A stretch of 64,000 nucleotides of DNA from a phage. The translations under genes were made by a program, and so were the position numbers. The notes below the pieces were generated by a model that made no database searches, was not told the origin of the DNA, and saw only the letters and a list, made by a program, of their open reading frames with translations. The DNA is taken from the sequence record PZ452596.1; one strand, given 5' to 3'. Below, in pieces: positions 3,434 through 38,138 of this stretch (its first letter is position 1; each line of letters starts with the position of its first letter).

Positions 3434-4449
3434 TGTGTTGCCTCTACATATAGCTGATTTGCATATTGAATAAGTGCTTCACGATCAGAATCAGTGATGT
3501 CTGGAATTGCATTAATATACTCTTCCATTAATGTCTGAAGCGATTGAACTTCAACTTCTTCACTGTCATCTGACTCAACAGAGTTATCAATCTTTGACAC
3601 AACTCGTAATGAATGCACAACTTTTTCTAGTTCAGATTCGAACTTCGTCAGATTTTTGTCTACTTCAGTTACTATAACACGTACTGATAGATTTGTAAAA
3701 TCTTTATAGTCAATTTTTCCCTTAAATGGATAATGAATTCGACGATGCCAGGTAGTGTTGTTTGGAATAAATTCCATTCGTTCTGTTTCTGTATCAAACA
3801 TCCAGAACCCACGAGGGTCATTCTCGTCACCTGCAGTTAGTGTCCATGGTGTCCCAATATATCTGACGTTAGCAGCCTCAGAGATAGTATGGAAGTGACC
3901 AGACCACACCTCTTTATAAGTCTTAAGGAAATCAGGTTCAAGACCGTGAGATTTCATTCCTTTATAAAAATAAAATCCATTCAGTTCCCAATGACCAACA
4001 CAAAAAGAAGCAGATGAAGTTTTGATATGCTCAAGAATTTCACCAGTATTTTCTTCGCACATCCAAGGAATCAAATCAATCAAACACCCGTCAAAATCTA
4101 CTGTAGTAGGCTTATCATATACTTTAACATTAGGATATTTAGCCAAAAGCTCAGTAGAGGCATTTGGATGCATTACATTTTTATAGTGGAGATCGTGATT
4201 TCCTACAATAGTATGTAATGTAATTCCAGCATCATCAAGCGTTTGAACTATTTCACGGGCGAACTCCATAGTTTTGTGTGTGATTGCTTTTCGCACATCA
4301 AAAATATCACCGTATTGAATCCAGGTAGTAATTCCATTTTTCTTAGAATATTCTATTGCTTGTTTAATTCCATCAATTTGAATACCGCGAATCCACTCAT
4401 CATCAGCTTTAACGCCTAAATGCCAATCACCTAAATTTAAAATTTTCAT
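3430..4449 (-). CDS. 47: gp47 recombination exonuclease subunit (Mre11/SbcD-like phosphoesterase)
   Basis: 339 aa; metallophosphoesterase motifs (GDWHLG, GNHD, GHWE). Confidence 0.92.
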   Translation of the reverse strand: MKILNLGDWHLGVKADDEWIRGIQIDGIKQAIEYSKKNGITTWIQYGDIFDVRKAITHKTMEFAREIVQTLDDAGITLHTIVGNHDLHYKNVMHPNASTELLAKYPNVKVYDKPTTVDFDGCLIDLIPWMCEENTGEILEHIKTSSASFCVGHWELNGFYFYKGMKSHGLEPDFLKTYKEVWSGHFHTISEAANVRYIGTPWTLTAGDENDPRGFWMFDTETERMEFIPNNTTWHRRIHYPFKGKIDYKDFTNLSVRVIVTEVDKNLTKFESELEKVVHSLRVVSKIDNSVESDDSEEVEVQSLQTLMEEYINAIPDITDSDREALIQYANQLYVEATQ

Positions 4450-4586
4450 ATATCAAGAACCGTCATTGAAATGCAAAATAAAATTATTGAAATAAATCCA
4501 TCTGGAGTACTAAAGAACCCAATCCAACATGCTCTAGTGAATAGATAAAATGCAAGAAAAAGTATCACATATCCAAGAAATATCAT
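4446..4586 (-). CDS. small hydrophobic protein (47.1-like)
   Basis: 46-aa ORF MIFLGYVILFLAFYLF..., stop overlaps gene 47 ATG (ATGA); below ORF-track size cutoff. Confidence 0.4.
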   Translation of the reverse strand: MIFLGYVILFLAFYLFTRACWIGFFSTPDGFISIILFCISMTVLDI

Positions 4587-4612
4587 TATATCAAACTCCG
4601 TATAAAGCTAAA

Positions 4613-4624
4613 GGGCCGAAGCCC
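4613..4624 (-). terminator. GC-rich tetraloop hairpin GGGCCGAAGCCC directly after a-gt
   Basis: Perfect 4-bp GC stem with 4-nt loop then T-rich tract on minus strand. Confidence 0.4.
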
Positions 4625-4625
4625 T

Positions 4626-5828
4626 TTATTTTGTAATAATGTCAAACTGTTCTTTAAAACAGAAGCTTGAATCTTGATGCTGATACAAAAATTCATATGC
4701 TTTTTCTCGCTCACGGTCATAAAGAGCTCGGTCAGATGACAGTTCTTTAATACGCTCGAATGTTGATTCCATATCATTTTCATCAAACCAAACGATACCG
4801 CTATCATGCGAGGTCAAAGGAGTATTATCAACACGGAATTTTAAATTTTCGCCAGTAGATTTCCAAAATACCGGAATTGTTCCACATGCACCAAGCTCGA
4901 GATGAGTATATTCTAAAGAACGTTGTAGATATTTTTTATCCAACTTACTCAACTGATAACCAAATCCGGATTTACTCATACGTTCAAGCATTTCGCTATT
5001 TACATAACGGTCAAGAATTTGCGTTGGCAAATTAGGAGCAATTTTAATTTGGTCTACTTGATGAAGACGATAATACTCGTATGGAATTCCTTTTTCTTTA
5101 ATAGGAATGAACGCTGGAGAACGTTCCAGACCTTCCATAATAGTACTTAGTCCTGCAGGTTTAAGATGTTTTTCGTGAAAATCAAACATCTGATAAAAAC
5201 CTTTCCATGTAGTCGTACGACCAATCCAACGGTTGATATTCATGTTAATTTCAGAAACATCTTTCCAGTAGGTTGATCGAACCTTTGCAATATCCATCGG
5301 AGGCTGAAAGTTATATACGGTCGGTGCTTCTTCAATATCATCAAACAGAGAAACAGTTTCTGGATACCATTCTTTCATCAGAACTTTATTAAAATCACCA
5401 TTATCAGAATGGCTAAAAATAACATCAGCTCGACGAACAGTTTCTTCTAATCCCAAATTTCGGCGCAAAGAAAGAGAAGAATGGTCATGTTGATAAACTA
5501 CAACACGAACCGAAGGTTTAATGTTATCAATAATTTTTTTATAGTTATTAATAGTGTCTTCTTCAACTGAAGTAGCAGGAACTGAATTGATAATTAGAAT
5601 ATCACAATCATTTACCAGCTTAAGTGTTTTATCGTATTCTTTTGCCAATAAAACCGGAATTGAAAATGATTTATAATCATGCGCGCAATTACGAGTAAAT
5701 GATTTATCTTTAGCATAAACCAAAGTTACTTCATGACCATTTTTAATAAACCAATCACGTTGCTCAAGAGAAAATTTAGTTACACCGCAACCTTCAAGAC
5801 CTCGAGCCATAAAAATACATACTTTCAT
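4626..5828 (-). CDS. a-gt: DNA alpha-glucosyltransferase
   Basis: 400 aa; N-terminus M.VCIFMARGLEGCGVTKFSLEQRDWF matches T4 alpha-gt as recalled. Confidence 0.9.
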   Translation of the reverse strand: MKVCIFMARGLEGCGVTKFSLEQRDWFIKNGHEVTLVYAKDKSFTRNCAHDYKSFSIPVLLAKEYDKTLKLVNDCDILIINSVPATSVEEDTINNYKKIIDNIKPSVRVVVYQHDHSSLSLRRNLGLEETVRRADVIFSHSDNGDFNKVLMKEWYPETVSLFDDIEEAPTVYNFQPPMDIAKVRSTYWKDVSEINMNINRWIGRTTTWKGFYQMFDFHEKHLKPAGLSTIMEGLERSPAFIPIKEKGIPYEYYRLHQVDQIKIAPNLPTQILDRYVNSEMLERMSKSGFGYQLSKLDKKYLQRSLEYTHLELGACGTIPVFWKSTGENLKFRVDNTPLTSHDSGIVWFDENDMESTFERIKELSSDRALYDREREKAYEFLYQHQDSSFCFKEQFDIITK

Positions 5829-9866: not shown

Positions 9867-10337
9867 TTAATCATGTTTCCACACCCCATCGGTATTTGAC
9901 CAAAGTCGCTGATTGTCTGATCCTCGCCACAGCTTTTTGGTCGGAAGATTTTTCTCATACTTCCCATCAATAATAACATCAACATATTTAAGCATTTCTA
10001 GTTGTTTAATATCTTCAAACTTATATCCTGTCCACAACCAAATGCTTTTATTGGGATAAAGATTTTTTACTGTTTGAACGATGCAATGAATAACATCTCG
10101 GTTATCAGGATAGAGAGGGTCACCTCCGGTTATAGTCAATCCTTCTATATAATCATTATTCAAACATTCAATTAATTGTTCTAGTGTCTCTCCAGTGAAT
10201 GGAACACCATTTCTAGCATTCCATGTTGATTTATTATAACACCCTTCGCATTTATGCAAACAACCTGTAACGAAAAGAACGACCCTGCAACCAGGGCCAT
10301 TAACAAAATCGCAAGGATAAAATCTATCATAATTCAT
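9867..10337 (-). CDS. nrdG: anaerobic ribonucleotide reductase activating protein (radical SAM)
   Basis: 156 aa; Cys cluster CRVVLFVTGCLHKCEGC near N-terminus. Confidence 0.9.
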   Translation of the reverse strand: MNYDRFYPCDFVNGPGCRVVLFVTGCLHKCEGCYNKSTWNARNGVPFTGETLEQLIECLNNDYIEGLTITGGDPLYPDNRDVIHCIVQTVKNLYPNKSIWLWTGYKFEDIKQLEMLKYVDVIIDGKYEKNLPTKKLWRGSDNQRLWSNTDGVWKHD

Positions 10338-12151
10338 TGGTGCTTAACCCTATGCATGATTTCTTTATTTTTACCGAGATTAAATCCGCGTTCGTTCGGA
10401 TTTCCCAAATAACCACATGTTCTTCTTATGGTATTCATCTTTTTAGGATCAGTTTCTCCACAAATAGAACAAACAAATCCGTTTTCAGTAGGAGTCATTT
10501 CATGGGTACTTCCGCATGTAAAACATTTATCTACCGGCATGTTAACACCAAAATAATCTAAATGTTGTGCAGCATAATCCCATACGGCCTCAAGGCCTTT
10601 CAAGTTATTTTTCATATCAGGAAGTTCAACATAAGAAATGTGACCACCTGTCGCAATGAAATGATATGGCGCTTCACGAGAAATCTTTTCAAACGGAGTA
10701 ATATTTTCTTCTACTGAAACATGGAAACTGTTAGTGTACCAGCCTTTATCGGTAACATCTTTTACGCTTCCATATTTTTCTGTATCGAGTTTACAGAAGC
10801 GATAACAAAGGTTTTCAGCAGGAGTCGAATATAAACTAAAAGCAAATCCAGTTCTTTCAGTCCACTGTTTAAGATGAGCATTCATTTTAGTTAAAATTTC
10901 TTGTCCAATATCACGACCGACAAGAATATTCAATTCGTGAATACCAATGTATCCCAAAGACACTGAACTTCTGCCGTTTTTAAATAACTCAATTATATCG
11001 TCATCAGGTTTAAGACGAACCCCAAATGCACCTTCTTGGTAAAGAATAGGAGCAACAGTAGCTTTAACTCCTTTTAAGGAACTAATTCTACACATCAAAG
11101 CTTCAAAACACAGATCCATTCGTTCATTGAATAATTCAACAAATTTCTGTTCATTGAACTGTGTTCCAATATAAGAATCTAACGCGATGCGAGGAAGATT
11201 CAGTGTTACAACACCAAGATTATTACGTCCATCAAGAATTTCATTACCAGTCGAATCTTTCCATACGCTCAAGAAACTACGGCATCCCATCGGAGAAACA
11301 GGAACAGATGAACCAGTGATAGCTTTATTGTTCTTAGCTGAAATAATATCAGGATACATCCTTTTGCTTGCACACTCTAGAGCAAGCTGCTTAATATCAT
11401 AGTTCGGATCGTCTTTGTAAAGATTAACGCCTTCTTCGACGAACATAACAAGCTTAGGAAAAATAGGAGTTATCCCATCACGACCAAGACCTTTAATACG
11501 ATTTTTCAGAATTGCTTTCTGAATCATTCGTTCAGTCCAGTCAGTTCCCGTACCAAATGTAATTGTTACAAAAGGTGTTTGTCCGTTTGAACTAAAGAGA
11601 GTATTTACTTCATATTCATAAGCTTGGAATGCATCGTATACGTCTTTTTCTGTTTTAGATTGAGCATAATTCAACGCATCAGCGATTTGCCATTTTTCTG
11701 CATCCTCAATATGTTTTGCATAGGTGCGTTTAACATAAGGAGAAAGTACTTTATCTACATTCGCAAAAGTCGTTCCGCCATATTGATGGGAAGCAACTTG
11801 CGCAGTAATTTGTGCCATAATTGCAGTAGCAACACCGATTGATTTAGGAGTTTCAATCTGCGCATTACCAAGCTTAAATCCGTTCTCAAGCATTCCTTTT
11901 AAATCTACTAAACAACAATTAGTAAATGGAAGAGCAGGGGAATAATCAATATCATGGAAATGAATAATTCCGCTTTCATGCGCTTTCATAATAAAAGACG
12001 GGACCATATTTTTGGCAATGTGTTTAGACACAATACCAGCCATAAGGTCCCGTTGAGTTGGAAAAACACGAGAATCTTTATTAGCATTCTCGTTTAAAAG
12101 GTCTTTATTAGTTTTATGAATCAATCCTTCAATTTCTTTTTCAATTGTCAT
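10334..12151 (-). CDS. nrdD: anaerobic ribonucleoside-triphosphate reductase, uninterrupted
   Basis: 605 aa in one ORF; C-terminal glycyl-radical motif RRTCGYLG; Cys-rich Zn site. Confidence 0.95.
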   Translation of the reverse strand: MTIEKEIEGLIHKTNKDLLNENANKDSRVFPTQRDLMAGIVSKHIAKNMVPSFIMKAHESGIIHFHDIDYSPALPFTNCCLVDLKGMLENGFKLGNAQIETPKSIGVATAIMAQITAQVASHQYGGTTFANVDKVLSPYVKRTYAKHIEDAEKWQIADALNYAQSKTEKDVYDAFQAYEYEVNTLFSSNGQTPFVTITFGTGTDWTERMIQKAILKNRIKGLGRDGITPIFPKLVMFVEEGVNLYKDDPNYDIKQLALECASKRMYPDIISAKNNKAITGSSVPVSPMGCRSFLSVWKDSTGNEILDGRNNLGVVTLNLPRIALDSYIGTQFNEQKFVELFNERMDLCFEALMCRISSLKGVKATVAPILYQEGAFGVRLKPDDDIIELFKNGRSSVSLGYIGIHELNILVGRDIGQEILTKMNAHLKQWTERTGFAFSLYSTPAENLCYRFCKLDTEKYGSVKDVTDKGWYTNSFHVSVEENITPFEKISREAPYHFIATGGHISYVELPDMKNNLKGLEAVWDYAAQHLDYFGVNMPVDKCFTCGSTHEMTPTENGFVCSICGETDPKKMNTIRRTCGYLGNPNERGFNLGKNKEIMHRVKHQ

Positions 12152-14252: not shown

Positions 14253-14495
14253 TTATTCCTTAATTCCTAGTACTTGTTTAAAAGTCTCGTCGTAATCAAG
14301 ACTTTGGCCCGTTTGTTCTTTATGTTTGTATATAATATCACTTACTTCTGATAGCATATTTTTATATGAACGAGTTAAAGCTGATTTAAGCACGCTGTAT
14401 CTATCAGGAAATTTACCATGTTCATTATAATAAGCTATTGCTAATTCGCGGACTGCCTTTTCAGCAGTCTCCATATATTCTTTACGCTTTGTCAT
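14253..14495 (-). CDS. hypothetical protein
   Basis: ORF trimmed to ATG 14495 ([13 protein letters not shown]...); upstream part of track ORF overlaps neighbour. Confidence 0.45.
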
Positions 14496-14796
14496 TTTCT
14501 TCTTGGTCAAATCGGTGTTTACAATGGCGGCATTTATAACGAAGATTATTAGTCTGCCAATGGACCAATTGCACCTGTTCAGTTCCACATTCAGGGCAAT
14601 TAGGAACGTTTTTAGAAGCCCTTTCGCGACGTTCAACCATGACCATTACAGAATCCCAATTAATAGGGCTGCTATAATCATCACAACCGTGAATCTTTCC
14701 ACGCATTTCCAAATTGTCTTCTTCACCAGCCATAATAATTTTAATTAGACTAGAATTACTTGAAGCTGCAATGTCTTCTAATAGACGCTTTTTCAT
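14482..14796 (-). CDS. zinc-ribbon protein
   Basis: 104 aa; CPECG...CRHCKH four-Cys/His pattern. Confidence 0.5.
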
Positions 14797-15719
14797 TTCA
14801 ATACCTCAATAGCATTACGTAAACCATTTGCTTTTGCATTAAGAGCTTTTAACAATTTGGTGTGTTCTGCAATTTGGGCTTCAACTTCAATCAAACGAGC
14901 ATTGAGATATTCGCGTTCTTCTTTCATAGTATCATTCTCATGATTGGATTTTGGCGTAGGTTTAAATTCACTAGGGTCCTTTAATTTAATAACAAATTTA
15001 GTTTCAAACAGTGAAAGACCATAATTCGTATTATCATCAAAGGATTTGACTACATCCATATCAGATAATAACACGTGTAAATTATAAGCCAAAGAACTAA
15101 TAGTTTTATTGTGTTTATTAGCTTCGCGTGGTTTCATATACGGAAGATTTTTATATATCTCATGCGGAGCGCAAACGATAATTGACAATTCAAATTGTCC
15201 ATTCTGGGACGATGGAGTGAATTTAGCCGTAACCCAGTCTTTTACATTCACATTAATAGTACGGTTATCACCATGACAAAACAGTCTACGAGAATGCTTA
15301 AAAAGCATATTCACATTATTATTAAATTCGTGTGAAAACTCACTGGCAAATTTTTCTTTACTATTTTTAGAAAACCATTCTTCTAAATAAGTTCTTTTCA
15401 CGTCATTAATAATATTAAATGTAACAACACTAGCATTTGATACATTAGTCTCAATGTAGCTTGGATACATAAATTTTTTAACATTATTAACAGCTATCAC
15501 AGAAGATAGTAATCGGGAACGTTTGAACCACTCGAGCAAAGAACCAAGAGAATGTGAATACGCATTTTGTGTATCTTTACAAATATGGTTTTCCCATCCA
15601 ATATAGTCTAAAAAATCACGAAGAATATTATTGATTACTGCTCTGTGTCCTATCTGATAATTACGATATTTAGTAATAAGACTGTCAAAATAATCAATAT
15701 AATGTTTACGAGTTTTCAT
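14793..15719 (-). CDS. hypothetical protein, member 1 of 4-gene tandem paralog family (C-terminal coiled coil)
   Basis: 308 aa; FKRSRLLSSV motif shared with 15772 ORF; heptad-rich last ~50 aa. Confidence 0.6.
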   Translation of the reverse strand: MKTRKHYIDYFDSLITKYRNYQIGHRAVINNILRDFLDYIGWENHICKDTQNAYSHSLGSLLEWFKRSRLLSSVIAVNNVKKFMYPSYIETNVSNASVVTFNIINDVKRTYLEEWFSKNSKEKFASEFSHEFNNNVNMLFKHSRRLFCHGDNRTINVNVKDWVTAKFTPSSQNGQFELSIIVCAPHEIYKNLPYMKPREANKHNKTISSLAYNLHVLLSDMDVVKSFDDNTNYGLSLFETKFVIKLKDPSEFKPTPKSNHENDTMKEEREYLNARLIEVEAQIAEHTKLLKALNAKANGLRNAIEVLK

Positions 15720-15771
15720 GTTCTTCTCACTTGGTTAATGATTTATACTCCGAGCCATCCTTGGCTTTAAA

Positions 15772-16773
15772 TTACTTAATTAACTGTAAAGCTTGTTCCA
15801 GACGATCAAGACGATTAACAGATTCTTCCCAAATCTTTTTAGCCTGCTCATATTCTTTCTGCGCTTTATTAGAAATTTCTAGAACTTCTTTATAAGCTTT
15901 TTCTAGTGCAATAACTTCTGGACGAATTTCTATCGGTTCAGGTGAATCGTCAAGACATTCCATTAGTTCCTCAAGGGTAGTTTCTTCTTTAGGAGTATTC
16001 ACAATTTCATCACATTTTTGTTGATAAATTTCTTTATCAGTAGGTGAGTACGCGCACTTTACTTCACGAAGACTAATTACAATTTTATATCCTTCCCAGC
16101 CGCATATATTCTTAAAAGGATATGTATGAATATTTTCTACTGTTTCCATACAAAGTAATGCGGTCTCTAATTGACGAGTTATAGTGCTAGCAATTGAGAA
16201 AAATTTATTAATGTTCTTTTGGTTAGTTTCTGGTGTAAAAAATCCATAATTCACAAAAATAGCTGCTTTATTTTTATCAAGTTCATATTCTTTTATGATA
16301 ATCATATCAGAAGCCCAAGGATGAATTTGACGATAATCGCCATAGCATAATTTAGAAGCTGATTTTAAAATTTGCTTTTTGAAAAGTCTGAAATTACTGA
16401 TCCAACGACGAGTAAAAATATTCTCAGGGTCTTCTTTATTATTAAGATGATAAGAATTAACATCACCGAACCAATTATATCCTACTACATCTTTAGTTCG
16501 TTTAATTTCTTTCCCAAAATTACCAAGAATATCCCGATTAACCAAATATGAAAGAAGACGAGACTCTTTAAAGGTTTTCTTGATAACATCTTTATCTACA
16601 CGGCTAGAAATTTTATGAATTTCATGAATAAATTTAGTAGAAGAAACAATACTTGCATCAACACTATTGAGCCATTGATTGATAATAGAAAGAACGACAT
16701 TTTGACCAAACATCGGTATAGCTTTATCATCAATAACGCTATTGAATGATTTGATATATTCGTTACGAGTCAT
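15772..16773 (-). CDS. hypothetical protein, paralog family member 2
   Basis: Start at ATG 16773 behind GAGGAG RBS; NIFTRRWISNFRLFKKQILKSASKL aligns with member 3. Confidence 0.6.
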   Translation of the reverse strand: MTRNEYIKSFNSVIDDKAIPMFGQNVVLSIINQWLNSVDASIVSSTKFIHEIHKISSRVDKDVIKKTFKESRLLSYLVNRDILGNFGKEIKRTKDVVGYNWFGDVNSYHLNNKEDPENIFTRRWISNFRLFKKQILKSASKLCYGDYRQIHPWASDMIIIKEYELDKNKAAIFVNYGFFTPETNQKNINKFFSIASTITRQLETALLCMETVENIHTYPFKNICGWEGYKIVISLREVKCAYSPTDKEIYQQKCDEIVNTPKEETTLEELMECLDDSPEPIEIRPEVIALEKAYKEVLEISNKAQKEYEQAKKIWEESVNRLDRLEQALQLIK

Positions 16774-16801
16774 ATTAATCTCCTCAGTAGAAAGTAAGAA
16801 C

Positions 16802-16831
16802 ATTATACCACATCCTTGTGGCAAAGTAAAC
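16802..16831 (-). promoter_or_regulatory. early promoter
   Basis: Minus strand GTTTAC, 18 nt, TGGTATAAT. Confidence 0.55.
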
Positions 16832-17850
16832 TAGTTCAGTGCATTTAGTGCATTGTTCAGTTTAGAACGTTGCTTTGTCAGATTTTGAACCCTTGACTGA
16901 GCTTGTTCTAACGCCTTTTCAGCTTCTAGCACTTCATTGGTCGCTTTAATGAGTTCATCATCTACTGCCTTAAGAGACTTCTCAATCGCGTCAGCGTGCC
17001 ATTTTTCTACAGGTTTAAAATTTGAATTTTCAGTAGGAAGAAAACTCACTTTATTAAGTTTACATGCATCTATATTGCTTGAGCTATACATCCAAAATTT
17101 AGGATCGTTTGATAAGTAATTGGATAAATTTAAGTTATCTTGCACTTCCTGCTTTTTCTCTTGCGGGACTTCGTCCTTTCTCAAAAAATCGTATTTAAAT
17201 GAAACGATCATATCAAGTTCATATGATGTTGTATCTAACTTAAATCGTTCAAAACGAGGTAAAATCTTAGATTGAACAGCAGCAACAACATCCATATACT
17301 TAAATGCTTCTGTCAACTGTGATTTAAGGCATTCACAAATTGAAAGAGAATTTTTTGTATTAGGTTTAAAGCTAATTCGTGCAGTTCTATTATTTTCTTT
17401 TAATGGTCTTACTTCCATTTGAAGAGTATAACAATCAAATTTCAGATTCTTTAAGTTAATATCAGAACCTTTTAATCGACTAGCCGTCGACAAAATTTGC
17501 TTCAATTGTTTACGGAATAGAGCAATAAATCTCCATTCAATACGATAATGATTTGGATTAAAAAATCCAGATGATAAATCGACCTTACTCTGACCAACGC
17601 CTTGAACAAATAGAGGATTTTTATAATCAATAGTTTTACAGAAATCGGTGAGCTGCTCACGAGCAGTCATTTGTGTAATATACCCCGCTTTACTAAAATG
17701 ACGTAACAATTCACTGCTATTTAGATATTTAAAGTGAATAGCACGATTAACTTTATCAGGGTCTAAATTATTTTCACACAAAAATGTCATAACATTACGA
17801 GTATCGCTGGCAGTACGAACCATATCTTCAATTTGAGAACGAGTTTTCAT
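16831..17850 (-). CDS. hypothetical protein, paralog family member 3
   Basis: 339 aa; NHYRIEWRFIALFRKQLKQILSTASRL; C-terminal coiled coil. Confidence 0.6.
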   Translation of the reverse strand: MKTRSQIEDMVRTASDTRNVMTFLCENNLDPDKVNRAIHFKYLNSSELLRHFSKAGYITQMTAREQLTDFCKTIDYKNPLFVQGVGQSKVDLSSGFFNPNHYRIEWRFIALFRKQLKQILSTASRLKGSDINLKNLKFDCYTLQMEVRPLKENNRTARISFKPNTKNSLSICECLKSQLTEAFKYMDVVAAVQSKILPRFERFKLDTTSYELDMIVSFKYDFLRKDEVPQEKKQEVQDNLNLSNYLSNDPKFWMYSSSNIDACKLNKVSFLPTENSNFKPVEKWHADAIEKSLKAVDDELIKATNEVLEAEKALEQAQSRVQNLTKQRSKLNNALNALN

Positions 17851-17858
17851 GGTGTTCC

Positions 17859-18761
17859 TTAAGATTTAAGTAAATCAACAATTTTAATTAACTTTTCACG
17901 CTCAGATTTAGCTTTACTACTCAATCCGGATAGTCTAAAGATTTCATCGTCATATTGTTGAATAGAAATATTCAGCTCTTCAATTTGCTTATTAAAATAA
18001 TCAATTTGCTCAGAATGTTTTTCGTTACTACGAACTGGTACAGGTTTTGTAGGCAATTTAGTTGAACTGGATTCATTCGGGCGATAAATTAAAATGCAAT
18101 TTGAACCAATCGGGCATTTAGCACCAGATGAATATTCTAATGTTCCGGCTTCTTTTAAAACTTCAAAAGCTAAACAGAGATGATACCCCATATTAACATA
18201 ATCTGTAGAGTGAGCTCTGATATAATAATCATCGCCGCGAATACTAAATTTAAAGCATTTAAGGTCTTCTGTATTATTGGTCTTAAAAATCATTTGTTTA
18301 TCTAGACCTTTAGCTAATCGAGCGCCTAATGCTAATAATCGTCGTTGATTTTCCCACAAATCCGCAATCATTTGGTCAAATGATAATTTTGGCATTAGTC
18401 GACCATAAAGGTCATATCCTTTATTATAATTACGAAGGATTTCACTCGCATTAATACGAGACAACGCTCCAATTTTATTAAGGGCTTTCATGATGCGATT
18501 AGATAAACCCATTCCAGACCCGTTTGTTCGTTGTAAATGTTTATCTAATCCAAACCCAATATCAACTTTAAATTTATCTAAAATTTCAGCATGAACATCT
18601 CTGTCAATAACATTCAAATCCAAAGTTGGGTTAAATCTATGAAAAAATTTATCTGGCTCTCCACGACGAAGTACAGTCCATTCATTCAATTTTTTATTAA
18701 CTAAAGATTTAATTACTGCATTGACATTATTAATTACTACTGACATATTTTTCTCACTCAA
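17859..18761 (-). CDS. hypothetical protein, paralog family member 4
   Basis: 300 aa; same architecture with C-terminal coiled coil; weaker similarity. Confidence 0.55.
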   Translation of the reverse strand: MSEKNMSVVINNVNAVIKSLVNKKLNEWTVLRRGEPDKFFHRFNPTLDLNVIDRDVHAEILDKFKVDIGFGLDKHLQRTNGSGMGLSNRIMKALNKIGALSRINASEILRNYNKGYDLYGRLMPKLSFDQMIADLWENQRRLLALGARLAKGLDKQMIFKTNNTEDLKCFKFSIRGDDYYIRAHSTDYVNMGYHLCLAFEVLKEAGTLEYSSGAKCPIGSNCILIYRPNESSSTKLPTKPVPVRSNEKHSEQIDYFNKQIEELNISIQQYDDEIFRLSGLSSKAKSEREKLIKIVDLLKS

Positions 18762-18872
18762 TTTTCAATTTTACTAAATACACAGAATATGATTGAAAAG
18801 ACTATATAAGCACCGCACACAGATTGAACTAATACCATTCCAAAGAACCAAATAATATTATCAAACAGTGTC

Positions 18873-18898
18873 TGTTTTACGTCGAAAGGACGTAAACT
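18873..18898 (-). terminator. hairpin GTTTTACGTC-GAAAG-GACGTAAAC
   Basis: 9-bp inverted repeat just downstream of 18922 ORF. Confidence 0.3.
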
Positions 18899-18921
18899 TA
18901 CAGTAATATTATCACCTTTTT

Positions 18922-19164
18922 CTATTGAAGAATACATCTCTGGTGAAATATATTCACTAAATCTATAACCGTCTTTGAGTTCATATACAGAGCAATAAAC
19001 GATAAACTAGACCCCTTTCCTTGAGTTCCTGTAAGGGTATTAACTACAGTAACATCATAATCTTTATAATGCATATAATCATTAATTGCGTAATAACCAT
19101 ATGCAACTACTACACATAAACAACATATCAATAAATTCAATCTTTTAATTATCAACTGTTTCAT
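18922..19164 (-). CDS. small secreted or membrane protein
   Basis: 80 aa with hydrophobic N-terminus (LLICCLCVVVAYGYYAI). Confidence 0.45.
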   Translation of the reverse strand: MKQLIIKRLNLLICCLCVVVAYGYYAINDYMHYKDYDVTVVNTLTGTQGKGSSLSFIALYMNSKTVIDLVNIFHQRCILQ

Positions 19165-19219
19165 AATAATCTCAATTAAAAGGGCTTAGAACCATTATAC
19201 CATCCTTGGTATAAAGCGG

Positions 19220-19747
19220 TTATGCGAGTACCGTCTTTAACCGTTCTTCAAACTTCCGAAGAGTATTCTGGCGTTCAGCTCTTTGCTTTTTGTAAGTTTC
19301 AATACGCTCTGAAATGAGAGTGTATCGTTCATTTACTGATTCTTTCATAAAATCAGGAATTTCACGAGAAGCTTTAATCTCGTCAAATTTATCAATAACA
19401 GCTTGCTCTTCAGCAATTAAATTATCATACATCAAAATATCTTTCTTGATGAACTCAATATCTTCTTGAGTTACACGAGATAATTTAGATGCTTTATCCT
19501 TTTTGTACTGTTCGTTAGTATCACGAGACCAGTGTAATGTACGATTTTTATTCGTATTCTTATAAATTTCTACAATACCGATCTCGTCAATAATAACGAT
19601 CCAATTCCAACAGGATTTGTAAATTTGTCCTCCATCAACTGTGATTTCACCACCAATTGAGACATCATTAAAGAACTTGCTTTGAGCTTCAGATTTAAAT
19701 TTACCATCGTTATAATTTACCAGGTTGAAAATATCTTTAGCGTTCAT
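19220..19747 (-). CDS. hypothetical protein
   Basis: 175 aa; helical charged C-terminal half; downstream of promoter 19775-19804. Confidence 0.55.
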   Translation of the reverse strand: MNAKDIFNLVNYNDGKFKSEAQSKFFNDVSIGGEITVDGGQIYKSCWNWIVIIDEIGIVEIYKNTNKNRTLHWSRDTNEQYKKDKASKLSRVTQEDIEFIKKDILMYDNLIAEEQAVIDKFDEIKASREIPDFMKESVNERYTLISERIETYKKQRAERQNTLRKFEERLKTVLA

Positions 19748-19774: not shown

Positions 19775-19804
19775 ATAGTACCACAGAGGAACGGTCTTGT
19801 AAAC
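19775..19804 (-). promoter_or_regulatory. early promoter
   Basis: Minus strand GTTTAC, 18 nt, TGGTACTAT, then CAACTATCAACT box. Confidence 0.55.
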
Positions 19805-37310: not shown

Positions 37311-37386
37311 TGGTCGAGGCAGTAGGGATCGAACCTACGACCCAGGACTTAGAAGGTCCTTGCTCTTCCTTCTGAGCTATGCCTCG
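37311..37386 (-). tRNA. tRNA-Arg (anticodon UCU)
   Basis: Hand fold: acceptor CGAGGCA/TGCCTCG, anticodon loop CTTCTAA, T-arm GTAGGTTCGATCCCTAC, encoded CCA. Confidence 0.85.
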
Positions 37387-37390
37387 GATT

Positions 37391-37465
37391 TGGCGGACGT
37401 GATAGGATTCGAACCTATAACCAATCGCTTAACAGGCGATCGCTCTGCCATTGAGCTACACATCC
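37391..37465 (-). tRNA. tRNA-Asn (anticodon GUU)
   Basis: Hand fold: acceptor GGATGTG/CACGTCC, anticodon stem ATCGC/GCGAT with loop CTGTTAA, T-arm ATAGGTTCGAATCCTAT, CCA. Confidence 0.8.
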
Positions 37466-37469
37466 AAAT

Positions 37470-37556
37470 TGGTGGGGAGTGATGGAGTCGAACCACCCGA
37501 GTCGCAATGACAATGGATTTACAGTCCACACCGCTACCTCTACGGGATAACTCCCC
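37470..37556 (-). tRNA. tRNA-Tyr (anticodon GUA), long variable arm
   Basis: Hand fold: acceptor GGGGAGT/ACTCCCC, anticodon loop CTGTAAA, variable arm GTCATTGCGACTCG, T-arm GGTGGTTCGACTCCATC, CCA. Confidence 0.8.
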
Positions 37557-37565
37557 TAATTAATT

Positions 37566-37640
37566 TGGTGGCCCTGGGTGGAATTGAACCACCATCTGGC
37601 GATTATGAGTCGCTTGCTTGAACCTTCCAGCTACAGGGCC
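37566..37640 (-). tRNA. tRNA-Ile (anticodon CAU, lysidine-type reading AUA)
   Basis: Acceptor GGCCCTG/CAGGGCC; anticodon stem-loop GCGACTCATAATCGC as in E. coli tRNA-Ile2; T-arm GGTGGTTCAATTCCACC; CCA. Confidence 0.8.
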
Positions 37641-37641
37641 T

Positions 37642-37717
37642 TGGTGCTGATTGACGGAATCGAACCGCCGACCTTCTCATTACAAGTGAGTTGCTCTACC
37701 TACTGAGCTAAATCAGC
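37642..37717 (-). tRNA. tRNA-Thr (anticodon UGU)
   Basis: Acceptor GCTGATT/AATCAGC; anticodon loop CTTGTAA; T-arm GGCGGTTCGATTCCGTC; CCA. Confidence 0.85.
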
Positions 37718-37722
37718 AAAAC

Positions 37723-37812
37723 TGGCGGAGGCGATAGGATTTGAACCTATGAGTCGCCGGAGCGACTGCCGGTTTTCAAGACCGGTGCATTAAACCACTC
37801 TGCCACGCCTCC
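37723..37812 (-). tRNA. tRNA-Ser (anticodon UGA), long variable arm
   Basis: Acceptor GGAGGCG/CGCCTCC; anticodon stem CCGGT/ACCGG with loop CTTGAAA; T-arm ATAGGTTCAAATCCTAT; CCA. Confidence 0.85.
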
Positions 37813-37814
37813 AG

Positions 37815-37888
37815 TCTCCATACAAGGATTTGAACCTTGGACCTCCTGATCCCAAATCAGGCGCTCTACCAAACTGAGCTACACGGAG
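37815..37888 (-). tRNA. tRNA-Pro (anticodon UGG), no encoded CCA
   Basis: Acceptor CTCCGTG/TATGGAG (two G-U pairs); anticodon stem CCTGA/TCAGG with loop TTTGGGA; T-arm CAAGGTTCAAATCCTTG. Confidence 0.8.
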
Positions 37889-37898
37889 TAAATTAAAT

Positions 37899-37972
<74 letters not shown>

Positions 37973-37977
37973 AAATT

Positions 37978-38064
37978 TGGTGCGAGAAGTGGGACTCGAA
38001 CCCACAAGGAAATCATTCCGCAGCATTTTAAGTGCTGTGCCTTTACCAATTTGACCATTCTCGC
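37978..38064 (-). tRNA. tRNA-Leu (anticodon UAA), long variable arm
   Basis: Acceptor GCGAGAA/TTCTCGC; anticodon stem CAGCA/TGCTG with loop CTTAAAA; T-arm GGGTTCGAGTCCC; CCA. Confidence 0.85.
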
Positions 38065-38065
38065 G

Positions 38066-38138
38066 CTGGGAATAAAGGACTCGAACCTTTGCATCTAGCA
38101 GTCAAAGTGCTATGCCTTACCAACTTGGCTAATTCCCA
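38066..38138 (-). tRNA. tRNA-Gln (anticodon UUG), no encoded CCA
   Basis: Acceptor TGGGAAT/ATTCCCA; anticodon stem TAGCA/TGCTA with loop CTTTGAC; T-arm AAAGGTTCGAGTCCTTT; 1 nt from tRNA-Leu. Confidence 0.85.

Follow-up and report, generated by a model that had tools for sequence, protein, structure and literature searches.

What do the four adjacent genes between the glutaredoxin gene nrdC and nrdC.7/nrdC.8 of a T4-like phage do, and how are they related to one another? We addressed this question in the phage sequence record PZ452596.1, in a window of 64,000 nucleotides (the whole stretch of DNA that was analysed), where the four genes sit inside a long leftward-transcribed block. Across the array region the window is 100% identical to phage RB27 (KM607000) and approximately 95% identical to T4, and all four open reading frames (ORFs) are the RB27/T4 orthologs of nrdC.3, nrdC.4, nrdC.5, and nrdC.6, annotated as hypothetical proteins in both genomes. 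Even in T4, the reference phage, approximately half of the genes lack a function. On profile comparison, all four genes are diverged duplicates of a single gene specific to T4-like phages, and we suggest that they probably constitute a tandemly expanded, lineage-restricted counter-defence family in which a variable target-binding head is joined to a conserved oligomerising tail.

Pairwise searches gave little sign of this relationship. The sole significant blastp pair was nrdC.3 and nrdC.4 (E 3e-4, 23% over 275 amino acids), with E values of at least 0.07 for the remaining pairs. Existing databases divide the genes as well: PHROGs places nrdC.3 and nrdC.4 together in phrog_1435 and the others in phrog_2351 and phrog_2257, and Pfam holds PF26897, PF23882, and PF26899. 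The high E values (above 0.07 for most pairs) and the three separate families kept by each database are what would be expected if the four genes were unrelated and their similarity were compositional only, a product of an AT-rich genome and of coiled-coil bias. Comparison of family alignments with hhalign argues against this, with a probability of 95.9% for nrdC.3 against nrdC.4 (E 6e-9) and of 92.3% for nrdC.4 against nrdC.5 (E 5.6e-7, 246 columns). Shallow first-pass profiles left nrdC.6 unlinked (0.5-2%, and 38% against the merged profile). Enlarged profiles, built by adding divergent members from a search of 1.84 billion cluster representatives and one Mosigvirus member, joined the nrdC.6 profile to the nrdC.3/4/5 profile at 95.7% (E 9.5e-9, score 65.6). 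The locally aligned stretch belongs to the N-terminal half and not to the coiled coil, and it reaches 267 columns at a lower threshold. Ten control profiles (two reversed, eight column-shuffled) scored 10-20 with probabilities of no more than 0.8%, against 55-66 for the real comparisons, so that the similarity exceeds what composition gives. We rejected the compositional explanation on these controls and consider it scarcely credible; the bridging matches, the same order of secondary structure, and the common structural neighbours described below also speak against it.

Two bridging matches connect the nrdC.3/4/5 group with nrdC.6. A single-copy protein of 335 amino acids from Enterobacter phage IME523 is matched by the nrdC.3/4/5 hidden Markov model (HMM) at 54 bits and by the nrdC.6 HMM at 27.9 bits, and the nrdC.3/4/5 HMM also matches the nrdC.6 of phage VR26 (22 bits). 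The top conserved motif of the superfamily reads RFIALFRKQLKQILSTASRLKGSD in nrdC.5, with FKKQILKSASKLCYGD in nrdC.4, NMLFKHSRRLFCHGD in nrdC.3, and NQRRLLALGARLAKGLD in nrdC.6 as its counterparts. Their common core is a helix pair that terminates in '[AS]x[RK]Lxx-GD' (ASRLKGSD, ASKLCYGD, SRRLFCHGD, and GARLAKGLD) and is placed before the beta sheet (helices 104-114 and 116-127 of the nrdC.5 model). The preliminary description of this DNA had called the genes diverged paralogs after noticing shared segments, and both pairs that it quoted, FKESRLLSYL versus FKRSRLLSSV among them, are matched in register by both the profile alignment and MAFFT. That view is borne out by the profile-profile comparison with its controls, by the bridging HMM matches, and by the matching predicted topology. 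The genes themselves are long-known T4 ORFs; the new element here is that PF26897, PF23882, and PF26899 are united as one superfamily.

AlphaFold2 models of nrdC.6 and nrdC.5 (predicted local distance difference test, pLDDT, of 78 and 72.5) place their elements in an identical order: N-terminal helices, a helix pair, a ββ-α-ββ unit, a linker, and a long C-terminal helix. The linker is disordered in both, with pLDDT below 50. Foldseek searches against BFVD returned for both models the same uncharacterised proteins of 313-334 amino acids from Klebsiella phage Mineola, Yersinia phage fHe-Yen9-01, and Citrobacter phage Merlin, along with proteins from T4-like phages of Acinetobacter, Pectobacterium, Erwinia, and Enterobacter. 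Template modelling scores (TM-scores) to these common neighbours, for the two of the four proteins that were modelled, were low (0.2-0.5) because of the flexible linker. A PDB sequence search with both the nrdC.3/4/5 and the nrdC.6 profiles returned no solved relative. Other fold-level matches had 5-15% identity and no sequence signal, and were no stronger than those to de novo designed proteins; they therefore reflect a resemblance of fold class and not membership. Scans of Pfam, PHROGs, NCBIfam, and PADLOC gave DUF or unknown families only, with no enzyme or defence family among them, and the earlier remark that the proteins have no recognisable catalytic motif thus holds in curated family scans.

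Each protein had also been said to end in a coiled coil, and this proved sound: heptad periodicity is significant in all four, and both models carry long C-terminal helices. In the last 42-56 residues of the proteins, 69-94% of the heptad a/d positions are hydrophobic, compared with 17-33% elsewhere (shuffle p 0-0.024). The nrdC.5 tail is modelled as one helix (residues 283-338, pLDDT 78-92), and that of nrdC.6 as two (242-271 and 277-294), broken at the Gly of ...RLSGL.... A common register and a terminal L..A[IL]..L[KN] motif characterise the tails of nrdC.3, nrdC.4, and nrdC.5, from which the nrdC.6 tail is offset by one position.

We found the family to be small and narrowly distributed. 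The merged profile detected 19 proteins at E ≤1e-3 among the 1.84 billion cluster representatives, and tblastn members were confined to T4-like phages of enterobacteria. The preliminary description had proposed looking for the genes in T4 and its relatives, and there we found nrdC.3-nrdC.6 in T4 itself and one, three, or four copies depending on the genus. Tequatrovirus has the full array of nrdC.6, nrdC.5, nrdC.4, and nrdC.3; Gaprivervirus and Dhakavirus have nrdC.6, nrdC.5, and nrdC.4; Mosigvirus has nrdC.6, an nrdC.5-like gene, and nrdC.3; and Kanagawavirus and Marfavirus have a single copy at the same location, upstream of the nrdC.2 homolog. Rearrangements within the array were also observed. 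A natural deletion in phage ACG-C40 (locus L008 of our collection, 4302-4713) fuses a start of 71 amino acids from nrdC.5 to the end of nrdC.3, a second protein (P0120, on a 167-kb contig) is likewise an nrdC.5/nrdC.3 chimera without nrdC.4, and in one IMG/VR genome (L014) nrdC.4 is split into pieces of 193 and 158 amino acids. Such variation in the array accounts for this region differing between otherwise near-identical phages, which bears on host range and on the choice of phages for therapy. One metagenomic protein of 173 amino acids (P0236), a candidate case of domain shuffling with a foreign N-terminus of 118 amino acids on an exact nrdC.5 coiled-coil tail, was given no weight; its N-terminus is absent from the sequenced phages of our collection and may be an assembly or frameshift artefact.

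Variation within the genes is concentrated in nrdC.3. Its alleles in the phage collection fall into classes of more than 90% identity (136 records), approximately 61% (352 records), and approximately 56% (162 records). Between RB27 and RB10, nrdC.3 is 97% identical in the first 30-residue window, 87% in the second, and 97-100% in the coiled coil; the centre is only 33-57% identical, with a synonymous divergence (dS) of approximately 1, and nrdC.3 of the RB10 type resembles its Mosigvirus counterpart more closely. Central cassettes of nrdC.3 have thus been swapped between conserved ends. The RB27 nrdC.5 protein occupies the same position between nrdC.6 and nrdC.4 as T4 NrdC.5 and has 92.9% global identity to it, with divergence rising to approximately 17-20% at residues 30-60 and 240-300. 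Within Tequatrovirus, the median ratio of nonsynonymous to synonymous substitution (dN/dS) was 0.28 for nrdC.3, 0.22 for nrdC.5, 0.18 for nrdC.4, and 0.08 for nrdC.6, compared with 0.04 for the neighbouring nrdC.8. Protein evolution is therefore faster in nrdC.3, nrdC.4, and nrdC.5 than in nrdC.6, and the purifying selection on all four shows that they are real genes.

Published work on T4 supplies the functional context. T4 nrdC.5 has been described as an uncharacterised early gene, and supplied alone in trans it enabled a T4 clone with deletions to plate again on E. coli carrying dsr1 of strain ECOR17; Dsr1 is a SIR2-domain defence thought to deplete nicotinamide adenine dinucleotide (NAD+) (PMC9391042). 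Transposon mapping of T4 classed all four genes as non-essential, with insertions in 91 of the 94 sites of nrdC.3, 97 of 101 in nrdC.4, all 82 in nrdC.5, and 79 of 82 in nrdC.6 (bioRxiv 10.1101/2025.11.20.689424, supplement), and reduced T4 genomes can lose nrdC.1-6 and stay viable (PMC9825161). Two genes lying a few hundred bases from the array have anti-defence roles: gp49.2 inhibits OLD (PMC13096335) and nrdC.1 inhibits Septu (bioRxiv 10.1101/2025.11.20.689424). The array thus has the features expected of anti-defence genes, in that it is dispensable, variable in its presence among relatives, and sited among anti-defence genes. In the literature searched we found no function for nrdC.3, nrdC.4, or nrdC.6 and no paper joining nrdC.3-6 as one family, and on DUF7235 and later inhibitors of Dsr1 nothing beyond the 2022 eLife paper (PMC9391042). 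The preliminary description had allowed that its genes might turn out to be well-characterised conserved T4 genes: conserved T4 genes they are, and well characterised they are not, three being hypothetical and nrdC.5 alone having a phenotype. As long-known T4 ORFs, one of them with a published role, they do not represent a new kind of system.

Taken together, these observations lead us to suggest that one gene specific to T4-like phages became four by tandem duplication. Each product would be a soluble protein of approximately 300-340 amino acids, with an alpha/beta head, a disordered linker, and a C-terminal coiled coil of approximately 50 amino acids, and would serve as a non-essential accessory factor, probably expressed early, in counter-defence. 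The head may bind a particular host immune protein directly and neutralise it, and the coiled coil may make the protein oligomeric, which would suit oligomeric targets. Judging from paralogy, neighbourhood, and the pattern of variation, nrdC.3, nrdC.4, and nrdC.6 would have targets other than Dsr1. Paralogy to the anti-Dsr1 gene makes these three hypothetical genes concrete counter-defence candidates, and the combination of a head with a coiled coil, together with the cassette-like alleles of nrdC.3, gives an indication of where specificity lies. Several points weigh against this proposal. Of the four paralogs, nrdC.5 alone has a phenotype, which was recorded in T4 and not in RB27; in the HIDEN-SEQ comparisons, a significant fitness effect of nrdC.3-6 was absent in the condition shown (bioRxiv 10.1101/2025.11.20.689424). 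The confidence of the predicted models is moderate (pLDDT 72-78), and oligomerisation is predicted from the heptads. Gene-wide positive selection was not seen, with dN/dS well below 1 in all four genes. Finally, nrdC.6 is strongly conserved across genera, as would be expected of a protein with a conserved target (possibly one of the housekeeping proteins of the host) more readily than of one facing a variable defence system.

A further-reaching form of the counter-defence proposal, which we put forward as possible and tentative, is that the array is a modular toolkit of a conserved oligomerising coiled-coil scaffold with interchangeable heads, each paralog or nrdC.3 cassette allele acting against a different immune protein. 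New specificities would then arise as genes are duplicated in tandem and as the conserved flanks, N-terminal and coiled-coil, allow recombination, also between phage genera. If true, the array would be to phages what a diversifying receptor family is elsewhere, and the best-studied phage would gain at least three new anti-defence specificities.

Other roles have to be weighed against counter-defence. The proteins may instead act in host takeover or regulation by binding conserved host machinery, RNA polymerase for example, and nrdC.5 would then counter Dsr1 indirectly. We regard this as unlikely for the array as a whole; nrdC.6, given its high conservation, may target a conserved component of the host. 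Comparably unlikely, and if anything slightly more so, is the idea of one hetero-oligomeric complex built from all four paralogs, held together by their similar coiled-coil tails and directed at a single target. The tails are indeed alike in length, with a register and terminal motif common to nrdC.3, nrdC.4, and nrdC.5; the genes are co-oriented and tightly packed (gaps of 8-57 nucleotides) and therefore probably co-expressed; and gene order is kept across genera. A fixed complex is difficult to reconcile, however, with a copy number of one to four by genus, with natural phages in which some members are missing, and with nrdC.3 alleles that are exchanged independently of the other members. 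In addition, plasmid-borne T4 nrdC.5 alone restored infection by the deletion-carrying phage, a clone that may or may not retain other paralogs.

A structural or assembly role appears highly improbable. It would draw on some fold matches to tail terminator and tail completion proteins, but these matches are weak and generic, and the genes are non-essential and deletable. They also lie in an early region with early-type promoter sequences adjoining, and nrdC.5 has been described as an early gene, so that the virion association raised in the preliminary description finds no support. We retain the counter-defence family as the probable explanation of the array.

Positions of the genes and of their features are collected in Table 1. 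The four ORFs are adjacent and co-oriented on the minus strand as previously delimited, except at the start of nrdC.6. This start is almost certainly the ATG at 18746 and not the TTG at 18761, because the ATG has a GAGTGAG Shine-Dalgarno-like site, is the annotated start, and gives an N-terminus conserved in all homologs. A purine-rich Shine-Dalgarno-like sequence stands 5' of each ATG start. The intergenic gaps are 8, 57, and 52 nucleotides, and nrdC.3 overlaps nrdC.2 by 4 nucleotides. By precomputed Pfam labels, PF26897 is carried by all nrdC.4 homologs and PF26899 by nrdC.6 homologs. The matches of nrdC.3 and nrdC.4 to the phrog_1435 profile are full-length. Membership of the nrdC.6 family is further indicated by a full-length profile match and by the YNKGYDLYGR / NQRRLLALGARLA core, which is present and invariant across genera. 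The match of nrdC.5 to PF23882 has an E value of 3.7e-114 and 381.7 bits, compared with a gathering cut-off of 30, and the protein also belongs to phrog_2351.

Table 1. Positions of the nrdC.3-nrdC.6 array, its features, and other elements in the 64,000-nucleotide window (a/d, share of hydrophobic residues at heptad a/d positions in the tail vs elsewhere)
Feature	Position	Strand	Extent	Details
nrdD	10334-12151	-	605 amino acids	Uninterrupted ORF
nrdC.3 ortholog	14793-15719	-	308 amino acids	RB27 and T4 annotation; phrog_1435, E 9e-100; most variable gene of the array, central cassette mosaic
nrdC.3 coiled-coil tail	14796-14942	-	Last 49 amino acids	Ends ...LRNAIEVLK; a/d 79% vs 29%, shuffle p 0.01
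nrdC.4 ortholog	15772-16773	-	333 amino acids	RB27 and T4 annotation; phrog_1435, E 3e-168
nrdC.4 coiled-coil tail	15775-15921	-	Last 49 amino acids	Ends ...LEQALQLIK; a/d 86% vs 26%, shuffle p 0.0005
Promoter-like site	16802-16830	-		TTTACT, 17-nucleotide spacer, TG-TATAAT; in the nrdC.5-nrdC.4 gap, upstream of nrdC.4; resembles a T4 early promoter
nrdC.5 ortholog	16831-17850	-	339 amino acids	Pfam DUF7235 (PF23882), residues 1-339
nrdC.5 coiled-coil tail	16834-17004	-	Residues 283-339	Ends ...LNNALNALN; a/d 94% vs 20%, shuffle p 0/2000
Top conserved superfamily motif in nrdC.5	17461-17532	-	Residues 107-130	
nrdC.6 ortholog	17859-18746	-	295 amino acids from ATG	phrog_2257, E 7.5e-153; most conserved gene of the array
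nrdC.6 helical tail	17862-18023	-	Residues 242-295	Ends ...IVDLLKS; a/d 86% vs 20%, shuffle p 0.0005
nrdC.7 region	18758-19164	-		Two overlapping ORFs: 18922-19164 (80 amino acids) and 18758-18937 (59 amino acids)
Candidate early-type promoter	~19190-19215	-		Upstream of nrdC.7
nrdC.8	19220-19747	-	175 amino acids	C-terminal heptad-periodic helix, p 0.005-0.03
Candidate early-type promoter	~19775-19803	-		Upstream of nrdC.8
tRNA gene cluster	37311-38138	-	10 genes	Arg, Asn, Tyr, Met, Thr, Ser, Pro, Gly, Leu, Gln

The promoter-like site between nrdC.5 and nrdC.4 has 10 of 12 consensus matches and an extended -10 element in a consensus scan; it is a lead and not proof, and the total of promoter-like sites in the region was not above that in shuffles. 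The candidate early promoters have a TTTAC-type -35 element and a TG-extended TATAAT or TACTAT -10 element, and further T4-early-type candidates were observed upstream of nrdC.7 and nrdC.8.

Many GenBank records that match positions 14400-19200 label the homologs of nrdC.3-nrdC.6 'thioredoxin', a label copied from the locus name nrdC. Pfam and NCBIfam scans detected no thioredoxin or glutaredoxin family, and hence no CxxC-bearing thioredoxin-fold domain, in nrdC.3-6.

Several other features of the window were observed. The product of nrdC.8 is extremely conserved, with a length similar in all genera, and its down-regulation has been reported in DRT1-expressing cells (PMC13275509). We considered nrdC.8 as a fifth member of the family on a Foldseek match (E 2.6e-3) and its heptad tail, and rejected it on an hhalign probability below 1%. 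In T4, nrdC.7 encodes a single predicted membrane protein of 133 amino acids; KM607000 annotates only the 59-amino-acid piece, and the split nrdC.7 of RB27 probably represents a frameshift or a pseudogene. In T4, nrdD consists of two joined pieces on either side of the I-TevII group I intron, and the uninterrupted ORF of RB27 indicates that this phage does not have the I-TevII-carrying intron. The transfer RNA (tRNA) genes form the sole stretch rich in guanine and cytosine (GC; 0.436 compared with approximately 0.34). GC skew is negative before approximately 43 kb and positive after approximately 44 kb, which fits a switch of the predominant coding strand.

The nearest known system is T4 NrdC.5 itself (DUF7235; Srikant, Guegler & Laub, eLife 2022, PMC9391042), to which the gene at 16831-17850 is a 92.9% identical ortholog; it is the T4 protein, not the RB27 copy, that has been demonstrated to act against the Dsr1 of E. 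coli ECOR17. T4 NrdC.3 and NrdC.4 (PF26897, phrog_1435) and NrdC.6 (PF26899, phrog_2257) are direct orthologs of the remaining genes and belong to uncharacterised families, which the databases treat as unrelated and which are here joined with DUF7235. DSAD1 of Bacillus phage SPbeta (PMC10973363, PMC10981675, PMC11087589) resembles nrdC.5 as a phage protein that cancels a defence-associated sirtuin; it is described as inhibiting DSR2 by direct binding in another phage and host, and we liken it to nrdC.5 by class of function alone. Closer in location are gp49.2 (anti-OLD) and NrdC.1 (anti-Septu), which, like the array, belong to the early, dispensable, hyper-variable pin-mobD region and in which a single protein acts against one defence. 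Both differ from nrdC.3-6 in being small, unrelated proteins without a coiled-coil tail and in belonging to no paralog array.

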